In this document: in pieces, positions 11,457 to 53,432 of the stretch | Layout of the letters: each line of letters opens with the position of its first letter | Numbering within the stretch: the first letter of the stretch is position 1 | Virus record (IMG/VR): IMGVR_UViG_3300047558_000077 | Location: 64,001 to 128,000 of that record | Direction: 5' to 3' (one strand) | DNA length: 64,000 nucleotides | Origin: a virus | The notes under the pieces: model-generated | The model's database searches: none | What the model was told of the DNA's origin: nothing | Seen by the model: only the letters and a program-made list of their open reading frames with translations | Made by a program: the position numbers and the translations under genes

Positions 11457-11725
11457 TGCGTCATTCTATCGCAGTTTTTTGTGGTTGACTTCTGAATCCG
11501 TTTGGACTATATTACGTGAACGGTGGGACGAAACAGAGAGACAGGAACACGGTGCGACAACCTGACGCACTTTTTTCTGAAAAAAGTTCTTGACTTCCTG
11601 TTTTTGATGCTATATAGTATGCGAACGATGAAACGAAAGAGGGAAACAGGAAATCAGAGTGCGACGGAATGTCTCACTTTTTCCTAAAAAAAAGTTCTTG
11701 ACTTCCTGTTTGAGTCGTGTATAAT
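11457..11725 (+). promoter_or_regulatory. three tandem early promoters, each with upstream TGCG-N9-CGCA-type box
   Basis: boxes 11457-11473, 11553-11569, 11660-11676; TTGACT at 11485, 11590, 11698; -10 TATATT/TATAGT/TATAAT. Confidence 0.75.
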
Positions 11726-11754
11726 ACTCAAACGATGAAACAAGGAGACACGGA

Positions 11755-11940
11755 ATGAAAGATGAAGCCGTGAAACGAGACTATTTCTGGGTGGTAGAAG
11801 TTACCGATCATAATGGTCGTGTAAACTATCGCAAGGAATATCATAATAAAGATGGTTCGGCATTTCGTGATTATGCTCGGTTGAAAACGCAGGGTACCGT
11901 TTGTATCCAGCGTAAGTTCAAAGAGTATAAGATTGCCTAA
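11755..11940 (+). CDS. hypothetical early protein
   Basis: 61 aa with AGGAG RBS downstream of tandem promoters. Confidence 0.6.
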   Translation: MKDEAVKRDYFWVVEVTDHNGRVNYRKEYHNKDGSAFRDYARLKTQGTVCIQRKFKEYKIA

Positions 11941-11977
11941 TCAACCGCTGTTTGACAATTGAATCAGGATTGTATAA

Positions 11978-12053
11978 GGTGCCGTGCCCGGAATGGTTAC
12001 GGGGCGGTCTGCAAAACCGTTTTATGTGGGTTCAACTCCCATCGGCACCTCCA
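11978..12053 (+). tRNA. tRNA-Cys(GCA)
   Basis: cloverleaf, ct GCA aa, CCA. Confidence 0.92.
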
Positions 12054-12193
12054 ATACTCTTAGAAAGATGTAGGCTCGTGCGGGCAAGGCGCCAATAAAA
12101 CTGATGCCCAAACCTTGTGTCACAATAGGTTCTGCTCTGGATTGCAACTATCAGAATGACTGACATAGTAAACCTACATCTCTCTAAGAGTAT
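12054..12193 (+). ncRNA. putative structured spacer ncRNA
   Basis: 21-bp terminal inverted repeat (1 mismatch) filling the Cys-Asn tRNA spacer. Confidence 0.5.
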
Positions 12194-12196
12194 TAT

Positions 12197-12275
12197 TCCG
12201 GAGAATCCGAGCAAGGTGCATGGACGTGACTGTTAATCACTGGTTAGTGGGGTTCGATTCCCCAATCCGGAGCCA
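12197..12275 (+). tRNA. tRNA-Asn(GTT)
   Basis: ct GTT aa loop, T-arm, CCA. Confidence 0.9.
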
Positions 12276-12280
12276 ATTAC

Positions 12281-12355
12281 CGCCCCTTCGTCTAGTGGCT
12301 AGGATAACTGCCTTTCAAGCAGTAGAAACGGGATCGAAACCCGTAGGGGTGACCA
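12281..12355 (+). tRNA. tRNA-Glu(TTC)
   Basis: ACTGC-ct TTC aa-GCAGT, CCA. Confidence 0.9.
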
Positions 12356-12360
12356 ATAAT

Positions 12361-12436
12361 GGCCGTGTAGGTTTCTGGGGAAACCACTTGTCTGTCTAAC
12401 AAGTTTAGGTGGGTTCGATCCCCATCACGGTCGCCA
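12361..12436 (+). tRNA. tRNA-Asp(GTC)
   Basis: CTTGT-ct GTC ta-ACAAG, CCA. Confidence 0.9.
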
Positions 12437-12450
12437 TTTGTATAGTATAT

Positions 12451-12526
12451 GGACCGTTAGCTCAGTTGGTAGAGCAGCCGACTCTTAATCGGCTTGTCGC
12501 AGGTTCGAACCCTGCACGGTCTACCA
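12451..12526 (+). tRNA. tRNA-Lys(CTT)
   Basis: GCCGA-ct CTT aa-TCGGC, CCA. Confidence 0.93.
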
Positions 12527-12531
12527 TTTAT

Positions 12532-12607
12532 GGATCCGTAGCACAATAGGTGGTGCAAGGGACTTTTAATCCCAAGGCTGTCGGTTCGAGCCCGACCGGA
12601 TCCTCCA
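12532..12607 (+). tRNA. tRNA-Lys(TTT)
   Basis: ct TTT aa loop, CCA. Confidence 0.9.
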
Positions 12608-12611
12608 ATAT

Positions 12612-12685
12612 GCGGCAGAAGTGTTACGGTAGCACAATAGGCTTCCACCCTGTTAGCGTGGGTTCGACTCCCACTTGCCGCTCCA
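12612..12685 (+). tRNA. tRNA-Gly(TCC)
   Basis: GCGGCAG acceptor, ct TCC ac, TCCA end. Confidence 0.9.
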
Positions 12686-12689
12686 GTAT

Positions 12690-12781
12690 AGATACATCAT
12701 ATTCTGGACATATCGGAGCACCGAGGTCATATGTTATGTCGTCATTGACGGCGAGATTAGAGACTTCTGCATGATGTATCT
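12690..12781 (+). ncRNA. putative structured spacer ncRNA
   Basis: AGATACATCAT/ATGATGTATCT closing stem, internal hairpins, followed by T-run. Confidence 0.45.
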
Positions 12782-12788
12782 TTTTTAT

Positions 12789-12915
12789 AGATAAACTAGG
12801 TATCTCTTCGAGAGAGAAATAGGTGGGTAAAGAGTTGAAATACTCCATAGAGCCTCTAAGCAGATTGAAACGAGGTAGTCAACACTATGCAGTTTGATCC
12901 TGCACTAGTTTATCT
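12789..12915 (+). ncRNA. putative structured ncRNA with tRNA-like T-arm
   Basis: AGATAAACTAG/CTAGTTTATCT stem stacked on TGCAG-TTTGATC-CTGCA arm. Confidence 0.5.
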
Positions 12916-12922
12916 TTTTATT

Positions 12923-12996
12923 GCGGATGTAGTTTAATGGTAAAACGGTACCTTGCCAAGGTACAGTCGATGGTTCGATTCCATCCGTCCGCTCCA
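12923..12996 (+). tRNA. tRNA-Gly(GCC)
   Basis: GTACC-tt GCC aa-GGTAC, TCCA end. Confidence 0.92.
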
Positions 12997-13171
12997 TTAC
13001 TCGTCCGAGGAGTTGGATACCTTGGGCTACCATATTACACGGGTGCGCTGTGTGGTATGGGTATAGGTGGCGGCAACCTAAACGTCCGTCTTAGCGCATC
13101 GTCTTATCCAGGCAAATCTGCCACAACGAAATAGTGGCTGGGAGATGGTAGTAACTCCCTGCGAGATTTAT

Positions 13172-13252
13172 CTCCACGTATCCACCTTCGCTACGAACGA
13201 AGAGTAAGGTAACTGGATGCAAATGCAGGTTCGAATCCTGTCGTGGAGTCCA
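13172..13252 (+). tRNA. rearranged tRNA-Arg(ACG)-like RNA
   Basis: 7-bp acceptor, canonical T-arm, CCA; anticodon hairpin nested inside D-like stem. Confidence 0.65.
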
Positions 13253-13348
13253 GGTCGCTGGATTACTAATCGATGGTTCCTAGGCCTATCGAGGTGTGTA
13301 CCAGTAGTGGAAGCCCGTCACCACTATAAGAAAGCGTGGCTGCTATTC

Positions 13349-13423
13349 GCTGGTAGGTCGGCAAGATGTCGAGGCGCTCTCATAAGGCGTTTAAGGTTGG
13401 TTTAATTCCAACTATCAGCACCA
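13349..13423 (+). tRNA. tRNA-Met/Ile2(CAT)
   Basis: ct CAT aa loop, ACCA end. Confidence 0.8.
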
Positions 13424-13429
13424 GTTTAT

Positions 13430-13504
13430 TGCGGTCAGGTGGTCCGGAGACCATTCTTGTCTCATAAGCAAGAGAGCCATGTTCGACTCATGGGTCCGCA
13501 TCCA
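13430..13504 (+). tRNA. tRNA-Met(CAT)
   Basis: CTTGT-ct CAT aa-GCAAG, CCA. Confidence 0.8.
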
Positions 13505-13565
13505 ATGTTGGTAAAGTGGTTCAGAGAACCGCATTTTACTAAATAAGGGTAGGAGGTACCTACCA

Positions 13566-13883
13566 ATGGTCGCAAGAAACAAATACGGTATAAAGAAAAC
13601 TAATGAAGAGGTATTTGTAGAAAACTCTACATATCCGAGACATAGGTTAAAAGAACGGATCATAAAAGAAGAAATGATCCCGTATGTGTGCCATGAATGT
13701 GGTATGGATGACAACTGGAACGGTAAGAAAATCGTTTTACAGTTAGACCATATAAATGGTGTGAATGATGATAATAGAATGAATAACCTTCAGTTCTTGT
13801 GTCCTAATTGTCATTCACAAACTCATACATACGCAGCAAAGAATAGACATAACTCTGCGAGAAAACCAAAGAGATATGTTTGA
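13566..13883 (+). CDS. HNH homing endonuclease inserted in tRNA array
   Basis: CxxC...LQLDHINGVNDDNRMNNLQFLCPNCHS; own late promoter at 13539. Confidence 0.9.
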   Translation: MVARNKYGIKKTNEEVFVENSTYPRHRLKERIIKEEMIPYVCHECGMDDNWNGKKIVLQLDHINGVNDDNRMNNLQFLCPNCHSQTHTYAAKNRHNSARKPKRYV

Positions 13884-13884
13884 T

Positions 13885-13958
13885 GTTGGTGTAGTGTAAC
13901 GGTAGCACAACGGCCTCCAAACCCGTTAGTAGGGGTTCAAATCCTCTCACCTTCGCCA
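13885..13958 (+). tRNA. tRNA-Trp(CCA)
   Basis: ct CCA aa loop, T-arm, GCCA end; two U-U mismatches in acceptor stem. Confidence 0.8.
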
Positions 13959-13965
13959 GTTTTAT

Positions 13966-14041
13966 CTAGGTGTAGCTCAATTGGCAGAGCATCCCGTTTG
14001 GGGCGGGAAGGCTGTTGGTTCAAGTCCAGCCACCTAGACCA
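13966..14041 (+). tRNA. tRNA-Pro(TGG)
   Basis: TCCCG-tt TGG gg-CGGGA, CCA. Confidence 0.92.
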
Positions 14042-14353
14042 TTTACGAAAGTGACATAGATATGGATACAGAATATCTAAAACGCCAAGCAATCTTTAGA
14101 CTTGTCGTGTTTTTTGTTATCGCTGTTGTAATAGGATTTATAGTGAGTGATATTAACATTCTAATGAGCCAATGAGGTATAACTATGTTTAAGATTACAG
14201 AAGAGACTAAAAAAGAAGCTGTTGATAAGATGATAGAAATTCTTTTATTTGAAAGAATTGATAATAGAGAAAAGTTTGAAGAAGCATTTGATGCTGCCGT
14301 CGCTATCGTAATGAAGCAGTTTGGTATTAGTATAGATGTATAACATATAATAT

Positions 14354-14444
14354 GGAGAGTTGGCTGAGTGGTCGAAAGCGGCCGTTTGCTAAATGGTTGA
14401 ACCCTAATACGGTTCCATAGGTTCGAATCCTATACTCTCCGCCA
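14354..14444 (+). tRNA. tRNA-Ser(GCT)
   Basis: long V-arm, tt GCT aa, GCCA. Confidence 0.92.
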
Positions 14445-14448
14445 ATTC

Positions 14449-14537
14449 GGAGTAAGTAACAGGCAAGGAGTCTGCACCGCTTGGAAAGCGGATGGTTCCC
14501 GAAAGGGAATAGGTGTCGGATACCTACTACTCCGCCA
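14449..14537 (+). tRNA. tRNA-Ser(GGA)
   Basis: long V-arm, tt GGA aa, GCCA; atypical T-loop. Confidence 0.8.
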
Positions 14538-14544
14538 ATTCAAT

Positions 14545-14633
14545 GGATGGTTAAGCAGAGCGGCCTCTGTCCTCGCCTCGAAAGCGAAGGGTGCCTGTAA
14601 AGGCATGGTGATCGACACATCAGCCATCCGCCA
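14545..14633 (+). tRNA. tRNA-Ser(CGA)
   Basis: long V-arm, ct CGA aa, GCCA. Confidence 0.82.
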
Positions 14634-14719
14634 ATTGTGCCTTCCATCAACGGCGTCCCCGTTAGGACACAGCAGGTTAGCCAGTCCCCTGTTGGAAGAA
14701 ATGTCTGGCACAGTTTTAT

Positions 14720-14794
14720 GCGGGCTTAGTTCAGAGGTAGAACATCGGTGTTACATACCGAGTGTCGGTGGTTCGATTCCATCAGCCCGCACCA
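14720..14794 (+). tRNA. tRNA-Val(TAC)
   Basis: TCGGT-gt TAC at-ACCGA, CCA. Confidence 0.9.
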
Positions 14795-14799
14795 TTTAT

Positions 14800-14876
14800 G
14801 CCCCTCTAGCCCAACTGGTAGAGGTGTCTGACTTAGAATCAGAAGGTTCTCAGTTCGAATCTGAGGAGGGGCACCA
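14800..14876 (+). tRNA. tRNA-Leu(TAG), short variable loop
   Basis: TCTGA-ct TAG aa-TCAGA, CCA. Confidence 0.88.
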
Positions 14877-14880
14877 ATTT

Positions 14881-14956
14881 GCGTTCTTGGTGTAGGTGAT
14901 CCGCACGCCTGTTTGAAGCACAGAAGGACTTAGTTTGATTCTAAGAGAACGCACCA
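14881..14956 (+). tRNA. tRNA-Phe(GAA)
   Basis: tt GAA gc loop, CCA. Confidence 0.82.
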
Positions 14957-14961
14957 GTTAT

Positions 14962-15038
14962 GCCCTCGTAGCCCAATCGGCAGAGGCAGTTGGCTCAAAC
15001 CCAATACAGTGTCGGTTCGAATCCGACCGAGGGCACCA
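14962..15038 (+). tRNA. tRNA-Leu(CAA), short variable loop
   Basis: GTTGG-ct CAA ac-CCAAT, CCA. Confidence 0.88.
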
Positions 15039-15044
15039 ATATAT

Positions 15045-15118
15045 GCTGGCATAGTGTAAAGGTAGCACACGAGATTGTGGATCTTGTAGACTAGGATCGT
15101 TACCTGGTGCCAGTACCA
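15045..15118 (+). tRNA. tRNA-His(GTG), no G-1, U72/A73
   Basis: tt GTG ga loop; preceded by T; ends ...AGT-A-CCA. Confidence 0.88.
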
Positions 15119-15126
15119 GGGCGGCC

Positions 15127-15201
15127 GCTGCCGTAGCTCAGTGATAGAGCATTCCCTTGGTAAGGGAAAGGTCGAAGGTTTGATTCCTTCCGGCAGCACC
15201 A
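15127..15201 (+). tRNA. tRNA-Thr(GGT)
   Basis: TTCCC-tt GGT aa-GGGAA, CCA. Confidence 0.9.
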
Positions 15202-15450
15202 TAAATATAATGTTGAACGATCAAGTTCGCATAGGAGTCTTTTAGATGATCGTCATTTCAGACAAGGCCAATAGTAAAGTAATAATTTCAGAAGAAGTCA
15301 ATAGAGAACTTAGTCAGCTTGTGATGACCACACTAAAGACAAAGTTTCCGAATATTGATGAAACAACTCTAACAGATATCATGACAACGCAGAGAGATAT
15401 TTACATCGACTTTCTAAATGAAAGATATAATACGGTAGAACAATGGAACA

Positions 15451-16029
15451 ATGAGAAGACAATACTCTGGTAACATATTAAACTTATGTGATCGACTAAA
15501 AGTAAGAATATATGATTTAGTAGGTTATGATAGCAAAAACAATCCAGAAGGTTGTTTGACAGGATACACCACAGCACACTTCAATAATCCTGTAGGCCGT
15601 AGATTGGATAAGTTGCCGGAGTTTAAAGAACCTTTAGATTTTGTTTTGAATACAGCAAAAGATTATGCCGTTGAAAACGGCTTAGACAAAGATCATCTAA
15701 CGACTGTCATGTGTTGGGTAAATGTCTATCCTCCTGGAACATTCATTAGTGCCCATAAACATATAACATTCGATAATCTGTTTACGTCCGTATTTTACTT
15801 ACAGAGTAAAGAAGACTCTGGGCAATTATATGTTGCCGACGATCCTAATCCAAAGAATATAAAGCAAGGTGAAGTGTATATTTTTCCTTCCAATATAGAT
15901 CATTGGACAACACCAAATGAAAGTGTTCAGGATAGAATAGTTTTCGGATGTGACTTTGTTTACTATCATATAGACGACCAAACAGTGGATAGAATCCTAT
16001 CTAACTGGCTTGACCGAAAAAAGACTTGA
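15451..16029 (+). CDS. 2OG-Fe(II) oxygenase-like protein (TIGR02466-like)
   Basis: WVNVYPPG...HKH...SVFYL...IFPS..DH.T.PN....RI. Confidence 0.75.
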   Translation: MRRQYSGNILNLCDRLKVRIYDLVGYDSKNNPEGCLTGYTTAHFNNPVGRRLDKLPEFKEPLDFVLNTAKDYAVENGLDKDHLTTVMCWVNVYPPGTFISAHKHITFDNLFTSVFYLQSKEDSGQLYVADDPNPKNIKQGEVYIFPSNIDHWTTPNESVQDRIVFGCDFVYYHIDDQTVDRILSNWLDRKKT

Positions 16030-16054
16030 CATTCCGTTTCGGGTGTGCTATTAT
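16026..16054 (+). promoter_or_regulatory. sigma70-type promoter
   Basis: TTGACA-17-TATTAT. Confidence 0.65.
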
Positions 16055-16080
16055 TAGACATAATGAGAAAGGAAAACGGA

Positions 16081-16557
16081 ATGAATAAGGTTTGGATTTT
16101 TGATATTGACGGAACGCTTGCTAACGTCCATCATCGTTGGCATCATATCAACGGTGGTGGTAAAAAGAACTGGGACGCATTCTTTGCCGATCAAATCAAG
16201 GACGAACCTTATCAGCCAGTGATGGATATCCTTCATGCTCTTGTGTCACATTATGTAGACGGAAGAAATAAGGTAATCTTTGTTACTGCTCGGGATGAAC
16301 GATTTCGGGAAGTCAGTTTACAGTGGCTAAATCGTCATATCAAGTATAAGGTTAGTGACGAAGACCTGTATATGCGTCCTGCTGGTAATCGTGAAAACGA
16401 TGACCTTATCAAGGTGCGTATTATCAAGAATTGGTTACAGCGGCATCCTGCTTATGAAGTCGGTGCGATCTTCGAAGATCGGCATCGGATTATCGATGCG
16501 TTTCGTGCCGAAGGCTGGTATACTTTTGAGTGTAACCAGCAGCGTTTAGAGTTTTAG
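16081..16557 (+). CDS. HAD phosphatase (T4 PseT/PNK 3'-phosphatase-domain-like)
   Basis: FDIDGTLA, VTAR, LYMR, FEDR. Confidence 0.85.
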   Translation: MNKVWIFDIDGTLANVHHRWHHINGGGKKNWDAFFADQIKDEPYQPVMDILHALVSHYVDGRNKVIFVTARDERFREVSLQWLNRHIKYKVSDEDLYMRPAGNRENDDLIKVRIIKNWLQRHPAYEVGAIFEDRHRIIDAFRAEGWYTFECNQQRLEF

Positions 16558-16563
16558 AGTTAT

Positions 16564-16637
16564 TGTCCCTTAGCTCAAAGGTAGAGCAATGTGCTGATAA
16601 CACATAGACACTGGATCGTTACCAGTAGGGACAACCA
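16564..16637 (+). tRNA. tRNA-Ile(GAT)
   Basis: ATGTG-ct GAT aa-CACAT, CCA. Confidence 0.9.
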
Positions 16638-16641
16638 ATAT

Positions 16642-16727
16642 GGGGGACTATTTGGCTAAGGACGCCAAGGGGTCTGTAAAACTCAAGCCTATGTGCTGGC
16701 CCGGATCGTTACCGGGGTCCCCTACCA
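16642..16727 (+). tRNA. tRNA-Tyr(GTA)
   Basis: ct GTA aa, long V-arm, ACCA. Confidence 0.85.
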
Positions 16728-16733
16728 AATTAC

Positions 16734-16790
16734 GGGCGAGAGCAAGGATGCATCCTAGGTTATAGGGGTTCGATTCCCCCTCGTCCACCA
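16734..16790 (+). ncRNA. 57-nt mini tRNA-like RNA with Ala identity (G3-U70, A73, CCA)
   Basis: GGGCGAG/CTCGTCC acceptor, TTCGATT T-loop, no D-arm or anticodon loop. Confidence 0.6.
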
Positions 16791-16796
16791 GTTTAT

Positions 16797-16870
16797 TCGG
16801 GGTTAGTTTAATGGTAGAACGTCGGTCTTTGGAACCGACTGTCTGGGTTCGAGTCCTAGACCCCGATCCA
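16797..16870 (+). tRNA. tRNA-Gln(TTG)
   Basis: TCGGT-ct TTG ga-ACCGA, CCA. Confidence 0.9.
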
Positions 16871-16876
16871 AATACC

Positions 16877-16980
16877 GGTTTCGGTCGCCCGGTCTGTTGC
16901 TGGCAACATAAGCAAGGCACGATTAAGTTGCGTATGCTGCTTATGCCAAGGGCAAGATACAGATAAAACCGAGCCTTTTT
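16877..16980 (+). ncRNA. putative rod-shaped ncRNA
   Basis: nested stems TCGGT/ACCGA, TCTGT/ACAGA, CATAAGCA/TGCTTATG, ends in T-run. Confidence 0.45.
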
Positions 16981-17123
16981 GTTGTAAGGAATACACTATG
17001 AACAAGGTGAAAGTTTCTCTTAGAGAAATCATGGAAGATGATAATCATCCACTTATGCTGAAATGGGTAGATGAGTTTCACTCAACACTTAGGGAAAAAA
17101 TCCAAAGTTATATAATGAAATTT

Positions 17124-17198
17124 TCAGGGATAGTTTAACAGGTAAAACCACGGACTCTGACTCCGTATTTCTTGGTTCGAATCCAGGTCCCTGATCCA
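17124..17198 (+). tRNA. tRNA-Gln(CTG)
   Basis: ACGGA-ct CTG ac-TCCGT, CCA. Confidence 0.9.
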
Positions 17199-17215
17199 AC
17201 ACTAAAGGATATATT

Positions 17216-17710
17216 ATGAATAAGTTCTTGACAACCGCAGTCGTTTTTGCTACACTTACAACTTCGGCAATGGCCGACCCTGTTACCGATTTTTTCGGTG
17301 GTATCTTTGGCGATCAATCGCCTCCACAAGCAAGAATGAGAAAGAGTAAACATGCAAGACACACAGTTCCACAGAATGCTAACGACGGTGGTAATGATGA
17401 TTGGACTGCTTCTTGGGGCCATTCTAATCATGGAAGCAGTCATATGGTCGCTTCATTTTATGGGCATGGAGAACACCTTTCAAGACACACCGCCTCGGGC
17501 GCACTTTTCAATCCTCATGGATACACAGCCGCACATCGCAGTTATCCATTCGGCACTCATTTGAGAGTATGTCATCATGGATGTGTTACAGTTGTGGTCA
17601 ACGATAGAGGACCATTTGTCAGGGGTCGTTCTCTTGATCTTTCTTATGGTGCTGCAAGGGCTATTGGCATGGGTAGCACTTCAAATATCTCCGTTGAAAG
17701 ACTAAACTAG
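17216..17710 (+). CDS. RlpA-like (DPBB) lytic transglycosylase family, exported
   Basis: signal peptide; ASFYG, TAAHRSYPFGT, VVNDRGPF, LDLS.GAA. Confidence 0.9.
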   Translation: MNKFLTTAVVFATLTTSAMADPVTDFFGGIFGDQSPPQARMRKSKHARHTVPQNANDGGNDDWTASWGHSNHGSSHMVASFYGHGEHLSRHTASGALFNPHGYTAAHRSYPFGTHLRVCHHGCVTVVVNDRGPFVRGRSLDLSYGAARAIGMGSTSNISVERLN

Positions 17711-17720
17711 ATAGTTATAC

Positions 17721-17795
17721 GGGCCTGTAGTTCAGGGGGAGAACGTCTGCTTTGCAAGCAGAATGTCGGCGGTTCGATTCCGTCCAGGTCCACCA
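17721..17795 (+). tRNA. tRNA-Ala(TGC)
   Basis: G3-U70, tt TGC aa, CCA. Confidence 0.92.
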
Positions 17796-17799
17796 ATAT

Positions 17800-17874
17800 G
17801 CTTCATTCGTCTACTGGCTAGGACACCCGCCTCTCAAGCGGGAAAAAGGAGATCGATACTCCTATGAAGCACCA
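17800..17874 (+). tRNA. tRNA-Glu(CTC)
   Basis: CCCGC-ct CTC aa-GCGGG, CCA. Confidence 0.88.
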
Positions 17875-17893
17875 AACACTAGAGAGTTATATC

Positions 17894-19703: not shown

Positions 19704-19779
19704 GCCGGTATAGCTCAGTAGGTAGAGCAGTTGATTCGTAATCATCAGGTCGTGGGTTCGATTCCTGCTACCGGCACCA
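19704..19779 (+). tRNA. tRNA-Thr(CGT)
   Basis: tt CGT aa loop, CCA. Confidence 0.9.
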
Positions 19780-19792
19780 TTTGGAGAATGAA

Positions 19793-20509: not shown

Positions 20510-20511
20510 TC

Positions 20512-21680: not shown

Positions 21681-21682
21681 CG

Positions 21683-45423: not shown

Positions 45424-46284
45424 ATGTCTTACATGCTGATTGACCTCAACCAGGTTCTAATCTCTAATCTGATGCAACACCTAAAGTTTGTATCAAAGCA
45501 GCACGAAATGAGTGAAGACCTTATTCGTCATATGTGCATCAATACAATCCGATCTAACGTAAAGCAGTTTCGTTCCAAATATCAGAACGTTATTCTTTGC
45601 TGCGACTCGAAGCATTATTGGCGGCGTGATTACTTTGCGTTTTACAAGTCGCATCGTAAGCATGATCGTGAGGCATCTGGTCTTGATTGGGATATGATCT
45701 TCACTGTCCTAAATGGTCTTCGTGATGAGTTGCGTGATAACTTTCCGTATAAGACACTAAATGTGGAAGGCGCAGAAGCCGACGATGTTATTGCTGTGCT
45801 AACTGCTAGACTGGCTCCACATGCTCCTGTTCTTATTCTATCGTCAGATAAAGACTTTGGTCAGTTGCAGAAGTATCCAAACGTTACACAGTATTCACCT
45901 ATTCTAAAGCGGTTTATCAAGATTGATGATCCGAAGACTTTCGTTCGGGAGCATATCATCAAGGGTGATCGTGGCGATGGCATTCCAAACTTTCTTACAA
46001 ATGACAATGCTCTTGCTGTTGGCGAACGACAGAAGCCTATCAGTAGCAAGAAACTGACCGAATGGGTTCACAAAGATGCCTCCGAGTTTTGCACTACGGA
46101 TTGGATGCTTCGTTGTTATAAGCGCAATCAGACTCTTATTGATTTTGACTATATACCTAACGAGATCCAGTCTAAAATCGTTGATGCATTTGAAGAGACA
46201 AAACCCGCAGACAAACAGAAAATGCTGAACTACTTTATCAACAAAGGACTCAAGGCGATGATTGAGTCTATTCATGATTTTTGA
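45424..46284 (+). CDS. rnh: T4 RNase H (5'-3' exonuclease)
   Basis: LID.NQ, YWRR...YK..R, EADD, SSDKDF, GDRGDGIP. Confidence 0.93.
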   Translation: MSYMLIDLNQVLISNLMQHLKFVSKQHEMSEDLIRHMCINTIRSNVKQFRSKYQNVILCCDSKHYWRRDYFAFYKSHRKHDREASGLDWDMIFTVLNGLRDELRDNFPYKTLNVEGAEADDVIAVLTARLAPHAPVLILSSDKDFGQLQKYPNVTQYSPILKRFIKIDDPKTFVREHIIKGDRGDGIPNFLTNDNALAVGERQKPISSKKLTEWVHKDASEFCTTDWMLRCYKRNQTLIDFDYIPNEIQSKIVDAFEETKPADKQKMLNYFINKGLKAMIESIHDF

Positions 46285-46291
46285 GGATAAC

Positions 46292-46729
46292 ATGACAAAT
46301 AAAAACATATATGAAGTTTTCAATGAGTTTAAAAATGCCAAGACAAAACAAGATCGCTTAGAGGTTCTAAGACGTAACAACAACTACGCTTTAAAAAATG
46401 TTTTGTTAGGTGCATTCAATAACAATATCAAATTCACTGTTAATAAAGTTCCTGACTACAAAAAGATAGATGTGCCGCCAGGCATGTCATACTCACACAT
46501 GACCGAGGCATTATCAAAGGTATACCTTTTTGTGGAGGGTAATGCAAAACGACCACAAGGTCTGACAGAAAAAAGAGCAACAGAACTTCTGATACAGTTG
46601 TTGGAATCTCTTGAACCAAATGAAGCAGAAGTTTTTGCCAACATGATTCAAAAAGATTTAAAAATACCATATCTAACAGTCAATCTAATCAATGAAGCAT
46701 TCCCTGGCCTGTTGCCGGATAAGGAGTAA
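46292..46729 (+). CDS. conserved T4-like hypothetical protein
   Basis: IQLLESL...EAE......KDL...EAFP motif following rnh. Confidence 0.6.
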   Translation: MTNKNIYEVFNEFKNAKTKQDRLEVLRRNNNYALKNVLLGAFNNNIKFTVNKVPDYKKIDVPPGMSYSHMTEALSKVYLFVEGNAKRPQGLTEKRATELLIQLLESLEPNEAEVFANMIQKDLKIPYLTVNLINEAFPGLLPDKE

Positions 46730-47048
46730 TCAAGGCTTAATACCATGAAGAACAAATCACCAAGTTTGAAACACGATCCTTTATATGCCGAATTATTCGA
46801 AGAAGATAGAAAGTATGGTGGCAAACGTTTGGAACTTCCTCAAACCGACTTAAAAAAGAAACGTCCCATCCAAAATCTAAGGAAAGCATGGATGGAGCAC
46901 GAGGAAGACTTCGACGAGGTTGATGACTTTTACGAACATTGATTGTAAACAGGATAGTGCTTGACATTCCTTAAATTTCGAGTAGGATAGGTACCATGCT
47001 GATCAATAGTGACAGCAGGTATCTATCCTTAACAGAAGGAATTATAGA

Positions 47049-48419
47049 ATGTCTAATTGGAAATATGTCACCCGCACAGTTCAGGAATTTGTCAACGAGG
47101 CTCAACGTGATAACTGGAATGTTGATCCTGAGTGGCAGCGCCTTGACACAAATTTAAACCTTAATGCTAAAGGCTCGAAGCCCTCTAAGGCACAGAGCAT
47201 CATTGCTTCCATGTTTAATGGCCAAGATATTGGTGAAATTAAACTTTGTGACTATGAAGGTGTTAAGTCCTCAATTGATGGTGGTAATCGTAAGAGAGCC
47301 ATTCTAAATTTTTATAATAACAAGTTTGCCCTTCCCAAGGGTAGCAAGTATGCAGGCCTAAAGTATAAAGACCTTAGCGAAGATGCGAAAGAACTCTTCC
47401 TTAGCTATGTGATCCGTTTCATCGAATACGGTGAAATCACTACACAAGAAATTGGTGAAACTTTCCGTAACACCAACAATACAACTCCCGTCAATAAGCA
47501 GGAAATGCGTAACAGCGAAGGACAGAATCCAGTTGCGGTTCTCGTTCGTCGTACCACACGCAAGATTGATGAGGTTGGTAATATCCCTCACATCCTCTTT
47601 GATTGGAGAATTAACGCAAAGGGTGATGCGGAATATACTTATCTTACCTTCAATAACAAAGGCCTGCATCTGGATGAACAGACGGCTCGTTTGCTTTGCC
47701 GTGTTTTACAGGGTGAAAAGTCCATTGCCGTGAGCGATGACGACCTTGATAAAATGTATGCAGATTATGAGGCGTTTTTGACCGATGAGGAAAACCTCAA
47801 GAAGGCTAAGAAGAAGTTGTATGAAGTATTGGACTTTATTGTCAATATTGCCGATACAGCTAGAAAGTATAAGAATGGTCGTGGTCTTGCCCATAAGCAG
47901 TATGAAATGCTGGTTCGCCTGTATTTCTACCTTAAAGAACACCACAAGTCCTTTAAGGTTACCGATGCTAGTGAATTTTGGGTTGCGTTCACTACCGCTA
48001 TGGACTCGGTTCTTTCGTGTGACGATATCACATTTAAGGAGCGTAGCGGTAAGACTCGTGTCGTTGCAGAAGCCTTCGGTCAGTATCTTAAAAGCGACTT
48101 GAACGACCAGTGGAAGTATGATAAGTCCCTCGAACTCTTCCTGAATGAGTTTAATCTTGATAACTGCGGTCTAAAGTTGCTTGATCCTAAGCGTTGCTTT
48201 AGCCGTGATGAAATCGAGAGTGCCTTGATCAAGCAAGGTTACAAGGACTTTATTGATGGTAAGAAACTGACCATGAAAGATGCGGTTGGTGCCCATGTTA
48301 TTGCACATTCTAATGGTGGTAAGACGGAGACCGACAATCTAGTGGTCGTTTCTAAGGCTCATAACACGGCGATGGGTACCATGCCCGTTGATGTTTACAA
48401 AGCCTCTCTCGGGTATTGA
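47049..48419 (+). CDS. DUF262/GmrSD-like protein with C-terminal HNH-like domain
   Basis: PEWQR, IDGGNR, F...N...P, H.IAHS.GG.T...NL......HN; own promoter at 46961. Confidence 0.7.
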   Translation: MSNWKYVTRTVQEFVNEAQRDNWNVDPEWQRLDTNLNLNAKGSKPSKAQSIIASMFNGQDIGEIKLCDYEGVKSSIDGGNRKRAILNFYNNKFALPKGSKYAGLKYKDLSEDAKELFLSYVIRFIEYGEITTQEIGETFRNTNNTTPVNKQEMRNSEGQNPVAVLVRRTTRKIDEVGNIPHILFDWRINAKGDAEYTYLTFNNKGLHLDEQTARLLCRVLQGEKSIAVSDDDLDKMYADYEAFLTDEENLKKAKKKLYEVLDFIVNIADTARKYKNGRGLAHKQYEMLVRLYFYLKEHHKSFKVTDASEFWVAFTTAMDSVLSCDDITFKERSGKTRVVAEAFGQYLKSDLNDQWKYDKSLELFLNEFNLDNCGLKLLDPKRCFSRDEIESALIKQGYKDFIDGKKLTMKDAVGAHVIAHSNGGKTETDNLVVVSKAHNTAMGTMPVDVYKASLGY

Positions 48420-48438
48420 TCTAAGTCAAAGGTAACTT

Positions 48439-48543
48439 AGGTATGTCAACAGTCTACCTAAAACGTAGACTTAGGGTGCGTCACCCTGTCGCACCTGTTG
48501 ACATACCTTTTTTATTGACTCTTCCGTTCCGCCGTGCTATATT
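48439..48543 (+). promoter_or_regulatory. boxed early promoter with branched inverted-repeat element
   Basis: 14-bp outer IR, inner hairpins, box 48477-48493, TTGACT 48515, TATATT 48538. Confidence 0.75.
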
Positions 48544-48549
48544 AAGTCC

Positions 48550-48870
48550 ATGATCACGAAACGCAAGAAGCGGTCCGACCGCAATCACATAATCTACAGC
48601 TTGACTGTAAAGGGTCAGGAATATATCGGTGTTACCCATGTCGAAAACGGCAAGGTTAACAAGTCTTTGGACCGTCGCTGGCGCAAGCATGTCGGTCGTG
48701 CGATGACCGAAGGTAAACTGTGGAAATTGTGCGTGGCTATTCGTAAGCATGGACCTGACAATTTCACTGTCGGCGTTCTGGAAATTGTGCGTGGTAAGTC
48801 TGCGGCTCATATACGTGAGCGGGAACTTATCCGTGAACGTAAGCCTAAACTTAACTCGGATGTGCGCTAA
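48550..48870 (+). CDS. GIY-YIG-like protein
   Basis: IIY...YIGVT...RW..H...E. Confidence 0.65.
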   Translation: MITKRKKRSDRNHIIYSLTVKGQEYIGVTHVENGKVNKSLDRRWRKHVGRAMTEGKLWKLCVAIRKHGPDNFTVGVLEIVRGKSAAHIRERELIRERKPKLNSDVR

Positions 48871-49109
48871 TGTCTACAACCTTCAATGATCTTATTGGTA
48901 TGCATGACCTTGACCAGAAGGTGATTGTAAAAAAGGCCTTAGAGAGCCTTACGCCCAGAATGCAATTTGTCGTCATTCGTCGGTTTTTTCAGAACCAGAC
49001 CTTGTCGTCAATCGCTGAGGAAATTGGTCTATCTGAGGCTAGACTATATCAAATTGAACGCAAAGCCCTATGCAGCCTAAAGCGTGGCTTTAGGCGAAAC
49101 AAAATCTGA
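48870..49109 (+). CDS. sigma70 region 4-like HTH protein
   Basis: LESLTPR...V...RF....TL..IA..IGLS..R.YQIE.KAL. Confidence 0.75.
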   Translation: MSTTFNDLIGMHDLDQKVIVKKALESLTPRMQFVVIRRFFQNQTLSSIAEEIGLSEARLYQIERKALCSLKRGFRRNKI

Positions 49110-49111
49110 GG

Positions 49112-49168
49112 TGCGACAACCTGTCGCATATGTTTACAGTTGACTCTTCCATTCCGCTGTGCTAATAT
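49112..49168 (+). promoter_or_regulatory. boxed early promoter
   Basis: TGCGACAACCTGTCGCA, 11 nt, TTGACT-17-TAATAT. Confidence 0.75.
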
Positions 49169-49626
49169 ATTCCCATAATGATGAAAGGAACAAATATGTC
49201 TAACGCTCGCTTCGCTCCCAAGAACCCCAACGGCAAAGATACTGCTAACATTTTTGCGCTTATTCGCTGGCACGAAAATGGTGGTAAAATCACCAAAGTG
49301 AAATCGTCCAAGCGTCCGAAGCGTGGTTATACTGTCGGTAAATCTGTCAAAACGGGAGATAAGTGATGGAAGTTTTCGTCCTGATGAGCCATATCCTCTA
49401 TGAATGCGACGAGTTGCTGGGCGTCTACCACAATGAATCGGACGCCGAGTTTGCCCGTGATGAATATAAACGAGAAAACGAAGATCATATGTTCGATCAA
49501 TTTAGCATTGAACGCCGTGTAATCGGTGCTGCGGCTCGGGCAGATTGGGAGACAGATAATGTCTGATATCGTTCTGTTTATTGTGCTATTCGGTATGCCT
49601 ATATCCCTGGGCCTTATTGCTATTCT

Positions 49627-49763
49627 CTCGGAGGACTAATATGACAGAACAGGAAATCACCAAGCACAATAACCGCAATTCTGAACATCAGCTTATTTGG
49701 CATGGTGTTTGCGTTTGGATCTATTCTGAATATCTGAATGGATAACTCGGAGGACTAATATGA
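49627..49763 (+). repeat. 18-nt direct repeat (RBS+start) flanking a 34-codon ORF
   Basis: CTCGGAGGACTAATATGA at 49627 and 49746. Confidence 0.7.
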
Positions 49764-50405
49764 TTGATCGTGATGCCTTAATAGCCGCAATATATGATCG
49801 TTATCTTGTTATAGGTAACTATTGGTGGTGTATTGATGATGTGCCCGACTTTTTAGATGATGTTATGTCCGATGGTCACTATGATAATATATCTTTTGAT
49901 CAGATAGTTGTCATGGTTTCCGATTATATGTATGATTGCGACTAAGGAGAATGAAATGATCGATAATTCTAAAACGGTTCAGTTTGTGGCACTAACGGTA
50001 ATGTCACTAGCATTGGTGTTCGGTGTTTATCTGATTTATCTTCTGGATGGAGGCATCTAATGGAGTTTACTCTCTTCAAGGCTCTAATGATTATTATGTT
50101 TATTCTCACGGCTGTTGGCATGGCATATAATGCTAAAATCATGAATGATTGTATTGATAGTGGCAGTCCAAAAAGCCAGGCGTGTTTCAAGTATAATGTA
50201 ATCAATAACAACATGCATAATCTCAACCTGAACGTAGATAATGGAGAATGAAAATGGCTAATGTGAAGACCTATAACCTTTCTATTCATCTGAAAGGTAA
50301 TCGCACTCTCACTTTTCGTGGCATTTCTCGTGTAGCGGTTGAACGATATCGCAAGCACTATGAAATCCAAATGGACTATATTTCCGCATCGGTGGAGAAT
50401 CGTTA

Positions 50406-51629
50406 ATGTCTTATCAGTTCGTGCAAGGTCGTGGTGCGCCGCTCAAGATGTGGTGCGAAGGTGTTGAGGTCGAGGACGATGCTCGTACCCAGTTAGAGAA
50501 CATAGCGTCCTTGCCGTTCGTGTATAAGCATGTGGCGGTGATGCCGGATGTTCACTTGGGTAAGGGTGCTACGGTTGGTTCGGTTATCGCTACCAAGGGT
50601 GCGGTAGTTCCGGCGGCTGTTGGTGTTGATATCGGTTGCGGTATGATGGCAGTTCGGTTGTCTCTAAAGGCAAACGACTTGCCGGACAATCTTGCTTCGC
50701 TTCGTTCTCATATCGAGTCCGTAGTGCCGCATGGTCGCACGGACAACGGCGGTAAGAACGACAAGGGAACGTGGCTTGACCGCATTCCGAACTCGGCTTC
50801 AAATGCTTGGTTGTCTTTGTGTAGCCGTTATGATGCTATAGTGGCAAAGCACCCGAAGATTGCGTCTCATAAGACTTTTGAGTTTATGGGCACTCTCGGC
50901 ACGGGCAACCACTTTATCGAGTTGTGTCTGGACGAGGACGATTATGTGTGGGTAATGCTACACTCTGGTTCTCGTGGTGTAGGTAACAAGATCGGTCAGT
51001 ATTTCATCGAGGCTGCTCGCAAGGAGATGGAGCGATATCATATCCTGCCGTATCTGCCGGATAAGGACTTGTCCTATTTGGTAGAGCATACCACGCTATT
51101 CGATGATTATGTTGAAGCAGTATCCTGGGCACAGGAGTTTGCTGCTCTCAACCGTCAGGTGATGATGGATGCGGTGCTTGATGTTCTGCGTCAGCGTTTG
51201 CCGTCGTTTGTCGTGTCTGATGAAAAGGCTGTGAACTGCCACCACAACTATATCTCCAAGGAAAACCACTTTGGAGAAAATGTGTTTGTGACCCGTAAGG
51301 GTGCGGTTCGTGCCCGTGAAGGCGATCTTGGTATCATACCGGGTTCTATGGGCACGGGTTCGTTTATCGTTCGTGGTCTTGGTAATCAGGAGTCGTTTTG
51401 TTCGTGTTCTCATGGTGCTGGTCGTCGTATGTCCCGCAATGCGGCTCGTAAGGCTATCACGCTAGATGATCATATCAAGGCGACCGAGGGTATTGAGTGC
51501 CGTAAGGACGTAGATGTGATTGACGAATCGCCGGCTGCTTACAAGGATATCGGTGCGGTCATGGCTGCACAGGATGACCTTGTTGAGATTGTCCACCGAT
51601 TGCGTCAGGTTCTAAACGTAAAGGGATAA
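50406..51629 (+). CDS. rtcB: RtcB RNA ligase
   Basis: MPDVH, VGVDIGCG, GTLGTGNHF, LHSGSRG, HHN, PGSMG, SHGAGR, DE.P.AYK. Confidence 0.96.
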   Translation: MSYQFVQGRGAPLKMWCEGVEVEDDARTQLENIASLPFVYKHVAVMPDVHLGKGATVGSVIATKGAVVPAAVGVDIGCGMMAVRLSLKANDLPDNLASLRSHIESVVPHGRTDNGGKNDKGTWLDRIPNSASNAWLSLCSRYDAIVAKHPKIASHKTFEFMGTLGTGNHFIELCLDEDDYVWVMLHSGSRGVGNKIGQYFIEAARKEMERYHILPYLPDKDLSYLVEHTTLFDDYVEAVSWAQEFAALNRQVMMDAVLDVLRQRLPSFVVSDEKAVNCHHNYISKENHFGENVFVTRKGAVRAREGDLGIIPGSMGTGSFIVRGLGNQESFCSCSHGAGRRMSRNAARKAITLDDHIKATEGIECRKDVDVIDESPAAYKDIGAVMAAQDDLVEIVHRLRQVLNVKG

Positions 51630-51907
51630 AAATGAAACGCAAGAATGTAAACCCAGTGGCTAAGGCGTTACGTCTTGGTGTATGTAAACCTAAGGTGATT
51701 GTAGACAGGAAAACTGTATACAATCGCAAAAGGCTACCAAAACTATAGACTATAGTGACTTGGTGTTCTAATATCTCAAAAATACCCCTTCAAGGGCAAC
51801 CATGCCCTGTCCGAAAAATCGATAGGAAGCACCAGGAGACTTTTCACGGTCTTCTGGTGCTATAGTCTCTTCCAGACCTCAAAACTCTCCTGGCGTCTCC
51901 TGGAGAT

Positions 51908-52007
51908 TGTAAACAGTCTACCAACTCTATAGACTTTAGGTGCGACATCCTGTCGCACCTGTTGACATACGATTTCTCTTGCTTCTTCCGTTCCGTTGTG
52001 CTACTAT
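51908..52007 (+). promoter_or_regulatory. boxed early promoter with branched inverted-repeat element
   Basis: box 51941-51957, TTGCTT 51979, TACTAT 52002. Confidence 0.7.
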
Positions 52008-52033
52008 ATCCGCATAATGTTGAAAGGAACAAA

Positions 52034-52675
52034 ATGATCAATCTCTCCAAGGCCTCTAAAATGCCTGCTAAGTCCTGGTCGCTTCAAGCGGGTTCGACCT
52101 GTCCGGGTTCTATCGATCCCGTTACCAAGCAGCCGCTTCCTGTTTGTGCGGGTTGTTATGCAAAAGATGGCATGTATAATATGCCAAACGTCAAGTCGGT
52201 TCGTGACGCTAATCGAGAAGATTGGAAGCGTGCCGAATGGGTCGATGAAATGGTTGCTTTGCTTAAAAAGCAAAAGTATTTCCGTTGGTTCGACTCGGGA
52301 GACGTTTATCATCCGGCTCTTGCTTTCAAAATCTTTCTGGTTATGCAAAAGACTCCGCATGTGAAGCATTGGCTTCCTACCAAGTCTTATAACATTCCGA
52401 AGATCCGTGCTATTCTTGATCAGATGAAAATGCTTCCGAATGCATCTGTTCGATATTCGTCTCCGTCTATTACGGGTGAATTTAATAGCGAACATGGCTC
52501 CACTGTTATCGCATATGCCGATGATGAAACGACCGCTACGGTCTGTGGTGCTTATTCTCGGAATGGCAAGTGTGGCGATTGCCGTGCTTGCTGGGATACG
52601 AATGTTAAGGTTGTCGCTTATCCCGCACATGGTCGTCGTATGATGTCCAAAGTCCGTAAAATGAAAGCAGCCTAA
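52034..52675 (+). CDS. GP88-family Cys-rich protein
   Basis: SKMP..SW...CPG...C..CYA, FRWFDSGD, WLPT, CGDCRACW. Confidence 0.75.
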   Translation: MINLSKASKMPAKSWSLQAGSTCPGSIDPVTKQPLPVCAGCYAKDGMYNMPNVKSVRDANREDWKRAEWVDEMVALLKKQKYFRWFDSGDVYHPALAFKIFLVMQKTPHVKHWLPTKSYNIPKIRAILDQMKMLPNASVRYSSPSITGEFNSEHGSTVIAYADDETTATVCGAYSRNGKCGDCRACWDTNVKVVAYPAHGRRMMSKVRKMKAA

Positions 52676-53331
52676 GGAGGATTAATATGTCACGCATATC
52701 TGATCTGATTATTCAAGCAGAGAACCTCGTTATTGAGGCTATGGGCGTTTCGGGTATTATGACCGACCGTGATGTTCTCGAATATGTAAATGACCGTATG
52801 CCTATTTACGTCGATATGCATTTTGTCGAGAGTGTCCTTGACAAGTATTTCGGCGATGACTGGTATGGCGGCGATATTCGCTCTTATAATTGAGGTGATG
52901 AAATGTCGTGTAGATGGCATTCATTCTATGAAAATGGACGCCTAAGGATTTATCTTTCCCATGAATCGCTCGAAGACCTGGAAAATAGTCTTTGTCAAGG
53001 TTTCTTTGTAGCATACGGCACTTCGCCGAATGGCGGTCCGTCAGATTGTATCTGGTATGTGCCTAACACCATAATGCAACAGGAAGGAATTTTCGCTTAT
53101 GAAAACCCGAGAATATACCAACAAGATTATCGAAATGGTCGATGAAGGTCTAATCGATCGGGATATTCTTATTCGTGATCTTCTAAACTATATGTCCGAG
53201 TCCGATGTTGAAAACTTTTATGACCAGTATTATGGTTATGAGGACGAGGACGATGAATTGGATGATGGTCAGCCGTCGGAAATGGACGAATGGCACGACT
53301 ATGACCCAGGATGCTGACTGTAAACGAGAGA

Positions 53332-53432
53332 ATGTCAACAGTCTACCGACTTTATAGAATATGGATGCGTCACCCTGTCGCACCTGTTGACATACCTTTT
53401 CGCTTGCAATCTGTCCTTACTTGTGTTATCCT
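53332..53432 (+). promoter_or_regulatory. boxed early promoter with branched inverted-repeat element
   Basis: box 53366-53382, TTGCAA 53404, TATCCT 53427. Confidence 0.7.

Follow-up and report, generated by a model that had tools for sequence, protein, structure and literature searches.

The window, that is, the whole stretch of 64,000 nucleotides analysed here, corresponds to bases 64001–128000 of a 172,364-bp viral genome (IMG/VR record IMGVR_UViG_3300047558_000077, hereafter G000), which is that of a complete 172-kb T4-like phage from a lake. Seven copies of a palindromic box are located in it, and with a probability of about 0.5 these boxes represent the near-invariant core of a portable intergenic cassette. 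The cassette would be this clade's own version of the PeSL terminator/promoter cassettes, and its core would double as a protein-binding site. PeSLs (promoter-early stem-loops) are composite terminator/promoter elements of T4-type phages (PMC4122927; PMC2839356), known from RB49/phi1, PST/T4, and nt-1/KVP40 (Arbiol et al. 2010, PMC2839356; Comeau et al. 2014, PMC4122927). In detail, a PeSL is a stem-loop just 5′ of a sigma70-like early promoter, with stems conserved in a clade-specific manner, and it sits in hyperplastic regions beside indels, where degraded or tandem copies are ascribed to slippage (PMC4122927).

In the RNA, the sense strand of the box would fold as a 7–9-bp GC-rich hairpin, which would terminate the preceding transcription unit or insulate it; the effect would be full at copies with a following U-run and partial at the others. 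In the DNA, the dyad, placed on one helical face, would probably be the target of a dimeric, sequence-specific protein with a modulating effect on the neighbouring promoter; protein binding is considered probable because of the helical phasing and of a conservation stricter than a bare terminator needs. This protein is probably encoded by the host, since early sigma70 promoters are involved and since three phage genes, examined one by one, all fail to track the box. Near-identical cassettes may also act as recombination points, and recombination there would account for the gains and losses of genes between them and for the transfer of a gene together with its cassette between phage families.

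Sequence, phasing, and anatomy of the boxes

All seven positions that a sequence-only reading had given for the 17-bp palindrome (11457, 11553, 11660, 48477, 49112, 51941, and 53366) were recovered by pattern search. The pattern TGCGWC-N5-GTCGCA is exact at four of these sites and has one mismatch each at 11457, 11553, and 11660. With up to two mismatches, 17 strand-matches were found against 4.4 ± 2.6 in shuffled sequences, and none out of 100 shuffles reached 17. Throughout 93 unique copies from public viral contigs, the N5 nearly always begins with A and ends with T, and thus the motif is a 7-3-7 palindrome, TGCGWCA-N3-TGTCGCA. The dyad as first proposed is real and non-random, but its extent had to be changed from 6-5-6 to 7-3-7.

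An eighth box was found outside the window, at genome position 62718 (window -1282), 40 nt 3′ of the stop codon of pmoC. It is directly followed by TTTTCT and then, at a gap of 10, by a consensus TTGACA-17-TATAAT promoter. In total, genomes of about 170 kb contain 4–8 boxes, that is, eight in G000 and four to five in each of the box-bearing near-complete relatives (G001–G003). When 185,579 bacterial and archaeal genomes were scanned, single matches turned up here and there at about chance level and no genome was rich in copies, which rules out a host repeat of the repetitive extragenic palindromic or uptake-sequence kind. No Rfam family matches the cassettes.

Downstream of every box (8/8 copies) there is a sigma70-type promoter, followed by a Shine-Dalgarno sequence and a start codon. 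The gaps between box and -35 within the window, in order of position, are 11, 20, 21, 21, 11, 21, and 21 nt, exactly as had been claimed, and the phasing proposed on their basis is stronger than was thought: 20 out of the 21 boxes listed from four genomes have gaps of 0, 10–11, or 20–21 bp, which place the dyad centre near -44, -54/-55, or -65. The gap sequences of orthologues are non-homologous, being a T-run, an A-run, TGTTKACA plus ACGATTT, or nothing (about nine kinds), and a single gene shows gaps of 11, 21, and 0 among its orthologues. In the unique contexts with a good promoter from all contigs, gap lengths peak at 10 and at 20–21. The gap stays in phase although the sequence between box and promoter is replaced; therefore, the helical phasing is real, and it suggests a bound protein.

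The boxes do not stand alone. Self-BLAST places them inside repeats of 70–140 bp: those at 48477, 51941, and 53366 (and, in part, 49112) belong to a repeat of ~100 bp, and those at 11553 and 11660 to a tandem repeat of ~107 bp (75% identity over 137 nt). Each cassette is an intergenic unit of 60–110 bp which starts directly 3′ of the upstream stop codon and consists of one or two stem-loops, an A/T tract, the sigma70 promoter, the ribosome-binding site, and the start codon, in this order. In some cassettes, an outer stem (TGTMAACnG / CnGTTKACA) encloses the stem-loops. The unit of the large cluster reads from its 5′ side as stop codon, TGTMAACAG, hairpin 1 (GTCTAyC..TAGAC), GG, and box, and continues with NN-GTTKACA, WACSWTTT, the -35, a 17-nt spacer, TGn-TATAAT, the ribosome-binding site, and ATG. 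The elements of the window are as follows:

11457..11473, + strand: box 1, TGCGTCATTCTATCGCA, then GTTTTTTG; 5 of the following 8 nt are T; gap of 11 to the -35
11485..11513, + strand: promoter P1, TTGACT-17-TATATT
11553..11569, + strand: box 2, TGCGACAACCTGACGCA, then CTTTTTTCTG, then AAAAAAGTTC (a T-tract/A-tract resembling an UP element)
11590..11618, + strand: promoter P2, TTGACT-17-TATAGT
11660..11676, + strand: box 3, TGCGACGGAATGTCTCA, then a T-run, then an A-run
11698..11725, + strand: promoter P3, TTGACT-16-TATAAT, upstream of a 61-aa open reading frame (ORF) at 11755–11940 (MKDEAVKRDYFW...)
48440..48507, + strand: Y-shaped module, outer stem GGTATGTCAACAG / CTGTTGACATACC around hairpin 1 (GTCTAC..GTAGAC) and box 4, then TTTTTTATT
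48477..48493, + strand: box 4, the second hairpin inside the Y-shaped module
48515..48543, + strand: promoter, TTGACT-17-(TGc)TATATT, upstream of a GIY-YIG gene (48550–48870) and a gene for sigma70 region 4 only (48870–49109)
49112..49128, + strand: box 5, perfect TGCGACAACCTGTCGCA, then TATGTTTACAG; gap of 11 to the -35
49140..49168, + strand: promoter, TTGACT-17-(TGc)TAATAT, upstream of the "MSNARF" ORF (49196–49366) and small ORFs as far as rtcB
51908..51970, + strand: module of TGTAAACAG, hairpin 1, box 6 (51941–51957), and CTGTTGACA; free energy (dG) -23.2, z -4.1
51979..52007, + strand: promoter, TTGCTT-17-(TGc)TACTAT, upstream of a GP88-family gene (52034–52675)
53332..53395, + strand: module of TGTCAACAG, a degenerate hairpin 1, box 7 (53366–53382), and CTGTTGACA
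53404..53432, + strand: promoter, TTGCAA-17-(TGt)TATCCT, upstream of a 180-aa winged-helix gene (53463–54005)

Within the window, 24 tRNA genes are found. The earlier view that much of this tRNA array is wired through the boxes to the host redox system was not borne out, the three boxes at 11.4–11.7 kb heading the 61-aa ORF. The orthologues of this ORF in G001 and G003 are boxed as well, with an A-run in place of the T-run. At 11485–11745, the tandem promoters P1–P3 have boxes between them, and G003 has a single copy. The RNAs from P1 and P2 would be of ~55 nt, with 5′ parts resembling the P3 leader, and the P1 transcript would extend for only ~55 nt before box 2 and its T-run. The array is probably a slippage duplication of the cassette.

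The TGTTKACA sequence was also considered as a -35 in its own right and was rejected, as no -10 lies at 16–18 nt from it. Two sites which looked like antisense cassettes (genome 39559 and 56045) are a different element without the box. The pair TGTMAACnG/CnGTTKACA could be read as the terminal inverted repeats of an element similar to a miniature inverted-repeat transposable element, but no target-site duplication was seen and the probability of this reading is low.

Distribution among related phages

The DNA polymerase of G000 is T4-type, with an identity to cyanomyovirus gp43 of at most ~50%, and a megablast of the 47–55 kb region against isolate phages gave no match. The same cassette was found by exact-pattern scans in dozens of IMG/VR contigs. 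When cassettes were sought by their promoter part alone, the box appeared at the fixed offset in 45 of the 47 unique cassettes. These 47 include the following variants: TGCGTC, with a T.T mismatch, in 11; TGTGAC/GTCGCG, compatible with G.U pairing in the sense strand, in four; a compensated change of a C-G to a T-A pair in one; and GACGCA in one.

A sample free of box ascertainment was obtained by gathering the orthologues of the 180-aa gene through protein similarity, which gave 60 unique upstream regions. The box is present in 38 of them. The other 22 form a box-less subclade with a different hairpin, the -35 being located in its loop.

The median protein identity among G000–G003 is ~60–64%. 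Across these four genomes the core of the box is unchanged, while the sequences of the -35, the spacer, and the gap vary. The genes with a box upstream are the following:

GIY-YIG gene: 4/4 genomes
180-aa winged-helix gene: 4/4 genomes
"MSNARF" small ORF: 3/4 genomes
Small ORF heading the tRNA region: 3/4 genomes
GP88 gene: 2/4 genomes
Gene after pmoC: 2/4 genomes

In the case of "MSNARF", the orthologue in G001 is boxed at a gap of 21 and that in G003 at a gap of 0. Similarly, G002 has a box 3′ of its orthologous pmoC, at a gap of 0 to TTGACT.

Synteny among 16 related contigs delimits a hyperplastic stretch between the orthologues of 46262–46729 and 54240–54644. The genes gained or lost between boxes in these contigs are a 456-aa gene, the sigma70 region 4 gene, rtcB, and GP88. 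In several related contigs (e.g., L051, L062, L013, and L082), some cassettes end with GAAAGG-T-ATG-TAA-AC, that is, a ribosome-binding site, a start, and an immediate stop, and the GGTATGTAAAC that follows is paired with GTTTACATACC in the cassette after it. Such units resemble "empty" cassettes which remained after the loss of an ORF.

The box is also found in a second clade (IMG/VR contigs L032, L072, L099, L108, L109, and others; GC content 34–38%). Its members have an SU10-type portal and terminase and are thus podovirus-like, not T4-like. A conserved hairpin, GTGGGCGGGTCCCAC, is often located there 10–15 nt from the box. In this clade, GP88 homologues have a box 130–155 nt upstream in five of the nine loci. 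GP88 is thus linked to the box in both clades and yet is absent from G002 and G003; the simplest reading is that the gene and its cassette moved together between phage clades.

Hairpins, possible terminators, and the comparison with PeSLs

The likeness to PeSLs concerns position, copy number, and genomic setting. In both cases, a stem-loop is placed immediately before a sigma70-like early promoter, downstream of which come a ribosome-binding site and a start (8/8 here); several near-identical copies occur per genome, with a clade-specific stem consensus (shared here by 45/47); and the copies occupy hyperplastic regions beside gains, losses, and replacements of ORFs, some being tandem or degraded. 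On the other hand, the core of the phage box is a fixed 7-3-7 palindrome common to an unrelated podovirus-like clade, its distances to the -35 are helically phased, the U-run is not constant, about six orthologous genes per genome are boxed, and a Y-shape arises in many copies through an additional hairpin and an outer stem. Of these traits, the fixed core across phage families, the phasing, and the restriction to a small orthologous gene set are new with respect to PeSLs.

If the cassette interpretation is true, PeSL-type units are not confined to the enterobacterial, Vibrio, and Aeromonas T4-type phages but also occur in uncultured phages which infect Alphaproteobacteria in freshwater, and units of gene plus cassette, such as that of GP88, cross phage families. 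The PeSL concept leaves the phasing and the near-invariant core unexplained; these two traits point to a sequence-specific factor acting on a small and conserved group of early genes of pmoC-bearing phages. Once identified, this factor would reveal how early expression in methanotrophs is timed or conditioned by these phages.

Several features indicate that the sense strand folds. A T-run (4–6 T) follows four of the eight copies in G000, namely the eighth box (window -1282) and those at 11457, 11553, and 11660, which gives them the form of intrinsic terminators, and most gap-10 contexts of all contigs are T-runs. At 11457, the strongest hairpin takes another left arm, GCGATAGAAT/ATTCTATCGC (~11442–11472), with a 10-bp stem and a dG of -13. 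The Y-fold (48440–48525) has a dG of -35.7 kcal/mol and a z of -6.96 (reached by 0/200 shuffles), its flanking 13-mers pair, and U6 lies directly 3′. The outer stem covaries in relatives (CAG/CTG, CGG/CCG, and CGA/TCG; A<->C with T<->G). The loop is poor in G on the sense strand, with seven G in 204 positions of 68 cassettes by a tally made by eye. In the second clade, the core tops a 12-bp stem in which the five lower pairs covary and pairing is at background for pairs 6–7.

A plain terminator would explain much of this. According to this explanation, the box is merely an intrinsic-terminator or mRNA-stabilising hairpin, its identity among copies is due to gene conversion and cassette spread, and the 0/10/20 spacing is a by-product of blocks of ~10 nt (T-run, A-tract) instead of a protein contact. 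The GC-rich stems with T-runs at window -1282, 11457, 11553, and 11660 and in many gap-10 relatives fit it, as does the full Y-structure with its U6 at 48440–48513, and the box-less relatives carry another hairpin in the same place. PeSL stem-loops are described as effective terminators, and the stems of the nt-1 PeSLs are highly conserved too. The box further shares with intrinsic terminators a GC-rich 7–9-bp stem, a short loop, and a T-run after 4/8 copies. The very active recombination of T4-type phages is in line with this explanation as well.

The course of change in the relatives does not agree with a terminator alone. The orthologues in G001 and G003 have an A-run in place of the T-run, and a gap of 0 arose in two independent cases. 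The core stays constant at ~60% protein identity while everything between it and the -10 changes, changes of the stem which preserve pairing are almost absent, unlike in ordinary terminators, and the boxes are confined to the same six or so genes. Thus, the box keeps the sequence of its stem and not only its pairing, the T-run is dispensable, and the position is locked to the downstream promoter. We regard the plain terminator as unlikely.

Some of these observations also weigh on the terminator half of the favoured cassette. The U-run is absent from the other four G000 copies: the boxes at 48–53 kb have merely 3–4 T within the next eight bases, those at 49112, 51941, and 53366 are not of terminator form, and the one at 48477 has a U-tract only by way of the outer stem. 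As the U-run is absent or replaced in orthologues, by an A-run or a gap of 0, termination cannot be the universally (or solely) conserved function. At pair 5 of the stem, an uncompensated T.T is frequent (11/47) and T-A never occurs in these phages, a pattern which fits a protein half-site TGCGWC better than a helix under selection. In addition, the 4–8 boxes per genome, always at the same genes, resemble a small regulon more than they do a general terminator.

In G000, hairpins with other, unrelated stems are also combined with promoters. Such hairpins, nested in promoters, were found at genome 36968, 106102, and 128515 and at window 59584–59644. One has the -35 in its loop (GGAAGGGG..CCCCTTCC), one lies just 5′ of the -35 (promoter at window 59616), and two lie within the 17-nt spacer (GCCGC..GCGGC and GGAGC-TTCG-GCTCC). 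They are putative compact terminator/promoter fusions.

Hairpin promoters of the virion RNA polymerase of phage N4 have a 5–7-bp stem and a 3-nt loop. They resemble the box in their short stem, 3-nt loop, sequence-specific stem positions, and location at early genes, but every box is followed by a full sigma70 promoter. A virion RNA polymerase, at which no search was aimed in G000, is not expected in a T4-like phage. Neither an N4-type hairpin promoter nor a resemblance to T7/SP6-type promoters found support.

Host and phage candidates for a proposed binding protein

The host is most likely an alphaproteobacterial methanotroph of the Methylocystis type, since the PmoC encoded by the phage (AmoC/PmoC gene at genome 61952–62677, window -2048 to -1323) is 88–93% identical to PmoC of Methylocystis and Beijerinckiaceae genomes. 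A permuted transfer-messenger RNA (tmRNA) in the window scores as the alphaproteobacterial type. The alphaproteobacterial host assumed by the sequence-only reading is thus likely, and the host side of its main idea becomes plausible. This idea was that the dyad is the site of a host redox regulator of the RegR/ActR/PrrA type, which at -44, -55, or -65 would activate a small set of early promoters according to the redox or oxygen state.

The published motifs are YSCGGC(5)GWCRMA for PrrA, GNGRCRTTNNGNCGC for RegR, and SSGNVRDNHYSNCSS for RegA (PMC5506826). The motifs of the RegA family are called degenerate and mutually dissimilar in the same work, where the recognition helices of RegA, PrrA, and RegR are given as 100% identical (PMC5506826). 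TGCGAC-N5-GTCGCA matches the PrrA motif at 11 of 12 positions, W included, and fits GNGRCRTTNNGNCGC (GNGRC-R-..-GNCGC). That different phages of Alphaproteobacteria have an invariant box could be due to these identical recognition helices. The boxes have in common with the sites of RegR, RegA, PrrA, and ActR a GC-rich imperfect dyad with a 5-bp spacer, a position 5′ of sigma70 promoters at activator-like distances, and a fitting host lineage (PmoC and tmRNA). The site lies on one helical face relative to the -35, and this phasing suits the geometry of class I/II activators. The RegR-dependent upstream activating sequence of fixR-nifA, for instance, is located near -68. The uncompensated changes of stem pair 5 and the failure of the three individually tested phage genes to track the box are further points for a host regulator of this type.

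The host genomes themselves give a mixed answer. In five methanotroph genomes (four Methylocystis and one Methylocapsa), the exact box occurs one to four times per genome, as often as the reversed-pattern control. Two of the four matches in Methylocystis parvus are conserved in other species: TGCGTC-N5-GACGCA is found at L520:3522–3538 and 13792–13808 and is kept in L455, L453, and L459. Each of these two sites is located in the promoter region of a gene for a secreted or membrane protein of 211 aa. The two genes are pmoD-like paralogues (29% identity, E = 3e-28), the first being placed between pmoB and copC/copD, near pmoCAB, and the second beside sodB. A sigma54-like GG-N10-GC motif is found 3′ of the first site. 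Pfam annotation around the two sites revealed no adjoining regulator. The conserved sites look like operators of a host regulator, and their conservation implies that the host has some factor for this dyad family.

The promoters are less favourable to an activator. Poor core elements, as activator dependence would imply, are not seen: the -35 matches the consensus at 5/6 positions in most of the boxed promoters of G000, a TGn extended -10 is present in five of the eight, and boxed TTGACA-17-TATAAT promoters exist, so that the promoters look self-sufficient. The proposal that boxed promoters have a non-consensus -35 and that TTGACA is kept for unboxed ones fails for the same reason, the eighth box and several relatives having boxed TTGACA. 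The published motifs are degenerate and dissimilar, and a post hoc match to them carries, therefore, limited weight; the phage box, by contrast, is near-invariant and extends to 7-3-7. The covarying flanks, the G-poor sense-strand loop, and the T-runs indicate a folded strand, and such hairpin-type features set the boxes apart from the published sites.

A further difficulty comes from the human gut. The faecal 40-kb element L521 (MT835532.1) has 14 copies of (A/G)GG-TGCGWCAC-N-RTGTCGCA-CC, which is the dyad, T.T variant included, between GG and CC flanks. They occupy nearly all spaces between genes and lie ~25–30 nt 5′ of start codons. Among the products of the element are a ParB-N protein and a giant SNF2/methylase protein of 2358 aa. 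Multiple copies of the dyad are also present in several contigs of Oscillospiraceae genomes, and on the basis of these matches the host of L521 would probably lack RegA. The gut dyad may be a coincidence, since it is not very improbable that a 7-mer half-site is shared by chance when more than 50,000 records are searched.

In the proposal of a RegR-type box, therefore, the sequence fit, the sigma70 promoters, the phasing, and the likely host stood, and the lack of enrichment in Methylocystis and the self-sufficient look of the promoters count against it. We hold an activating site of this kind to be distinctly unlikely, and the assignment to RegR/PrrA to be a reasonable candidate at long odds. 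At slightly longer odds still, the phage may set an optimal site for a RegSR/ActSR-type (or another conserved host) regulator on one face of about six early promoters, including the one after pmoC, the same site being the cassette's terminator hairpin. The oxygen or redox state of the methanotroph would in that case govern part of early expression, and units of gene plus switch could move between phage families. Sites of host transcription factors in promoters of lytic phages have precedents in the NtcA and PhoB boxes of cyanophages and the CtrA boxes in phages of Alphaproteobacteria. In these cases, too, a conserved box ties some promoters of a lytic phage to a global regulator of the host; those boxes match well-defined host regulons, whereas the element here also folds.

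The dyad could also be the operator of a phage regulator, the candidates being the 180-aa winged-helix protein, the 79-aa sigma region 4 protein, the small GIY-YIG protein, and GP88. Such a regulator would switch a small early regulon later in infection, or it would nick the hairpin and drive the exchange of cassettes. The early sigma70 promoters fire before phage proteins exist, and the distribution of the candidates, given below with box-less genomes G004 and G005 for comparison, also makes this an improbable reading.

The product of 48870–49109 (+ strand) is a 79-aa stand-alone sigma70 region 4 (Pfam PF04545, E = 9.8e-12), encoded directly 3′ of GIY-YIG, and it may serve as a decoy that binds the -35 or as a sigma appropriator. 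In its favour, the gene is located between two boxes. It is present in G003, L040, L105, and L142, but it is absent from G001 and G002, which have four to five boxes.

The product of 53463–54005 (+ strand) is a 180-aa protein found in more than 100 viral contigs, with a winged-helix N-domain, a Lys/Ala-rich linker, and an acidic C-terminal tail. The N-domain is predicted with a pLDDT of 80–89, and its top structural matches are regulators of the ArsR/PadR/MarR kinds, but with weak Foldseek E-values (0.02). The tail is invariant (..DDVTEQFG..DWDS.EGLDL..LL) and resembles a clamp- or partner-binding peptide. Its own gene is boxed in 4/4 genomes, but the protein is also encoded in the box-less G004 and G005 and behind the 22 box-less upstream contexts. 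Both genes had been named by the sequence-only reading as possible box factors, and neither distribution agrees with this role. GP88 is linked to the box in two phage families but is missing from G002 and G003. On presence and absence, these three are ruled out as obligatory partners of the box.

The GIY-YIG gene (48550–48870, + strand) encodes a 106-aa protein with this domain only. It is boxed in 4/4 genomes and co-occurs with the box, being found in all box-bearing complete genomes and absent from the box-less ones. However, phylogeny confounds this association: when all ORFs of G000 were profiled phyletically against genomes with and without the box, to which G012 is unrelated, 75 candidates had the same profile, and the test is thus non-discriminating. 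The protein shows 64–96% identity in all box-bearing relatives and its gene is always directly behind the box; it is not a sporadic homing endonuclease. By analogy, it may be a counterpart of T4 endonuclease II.

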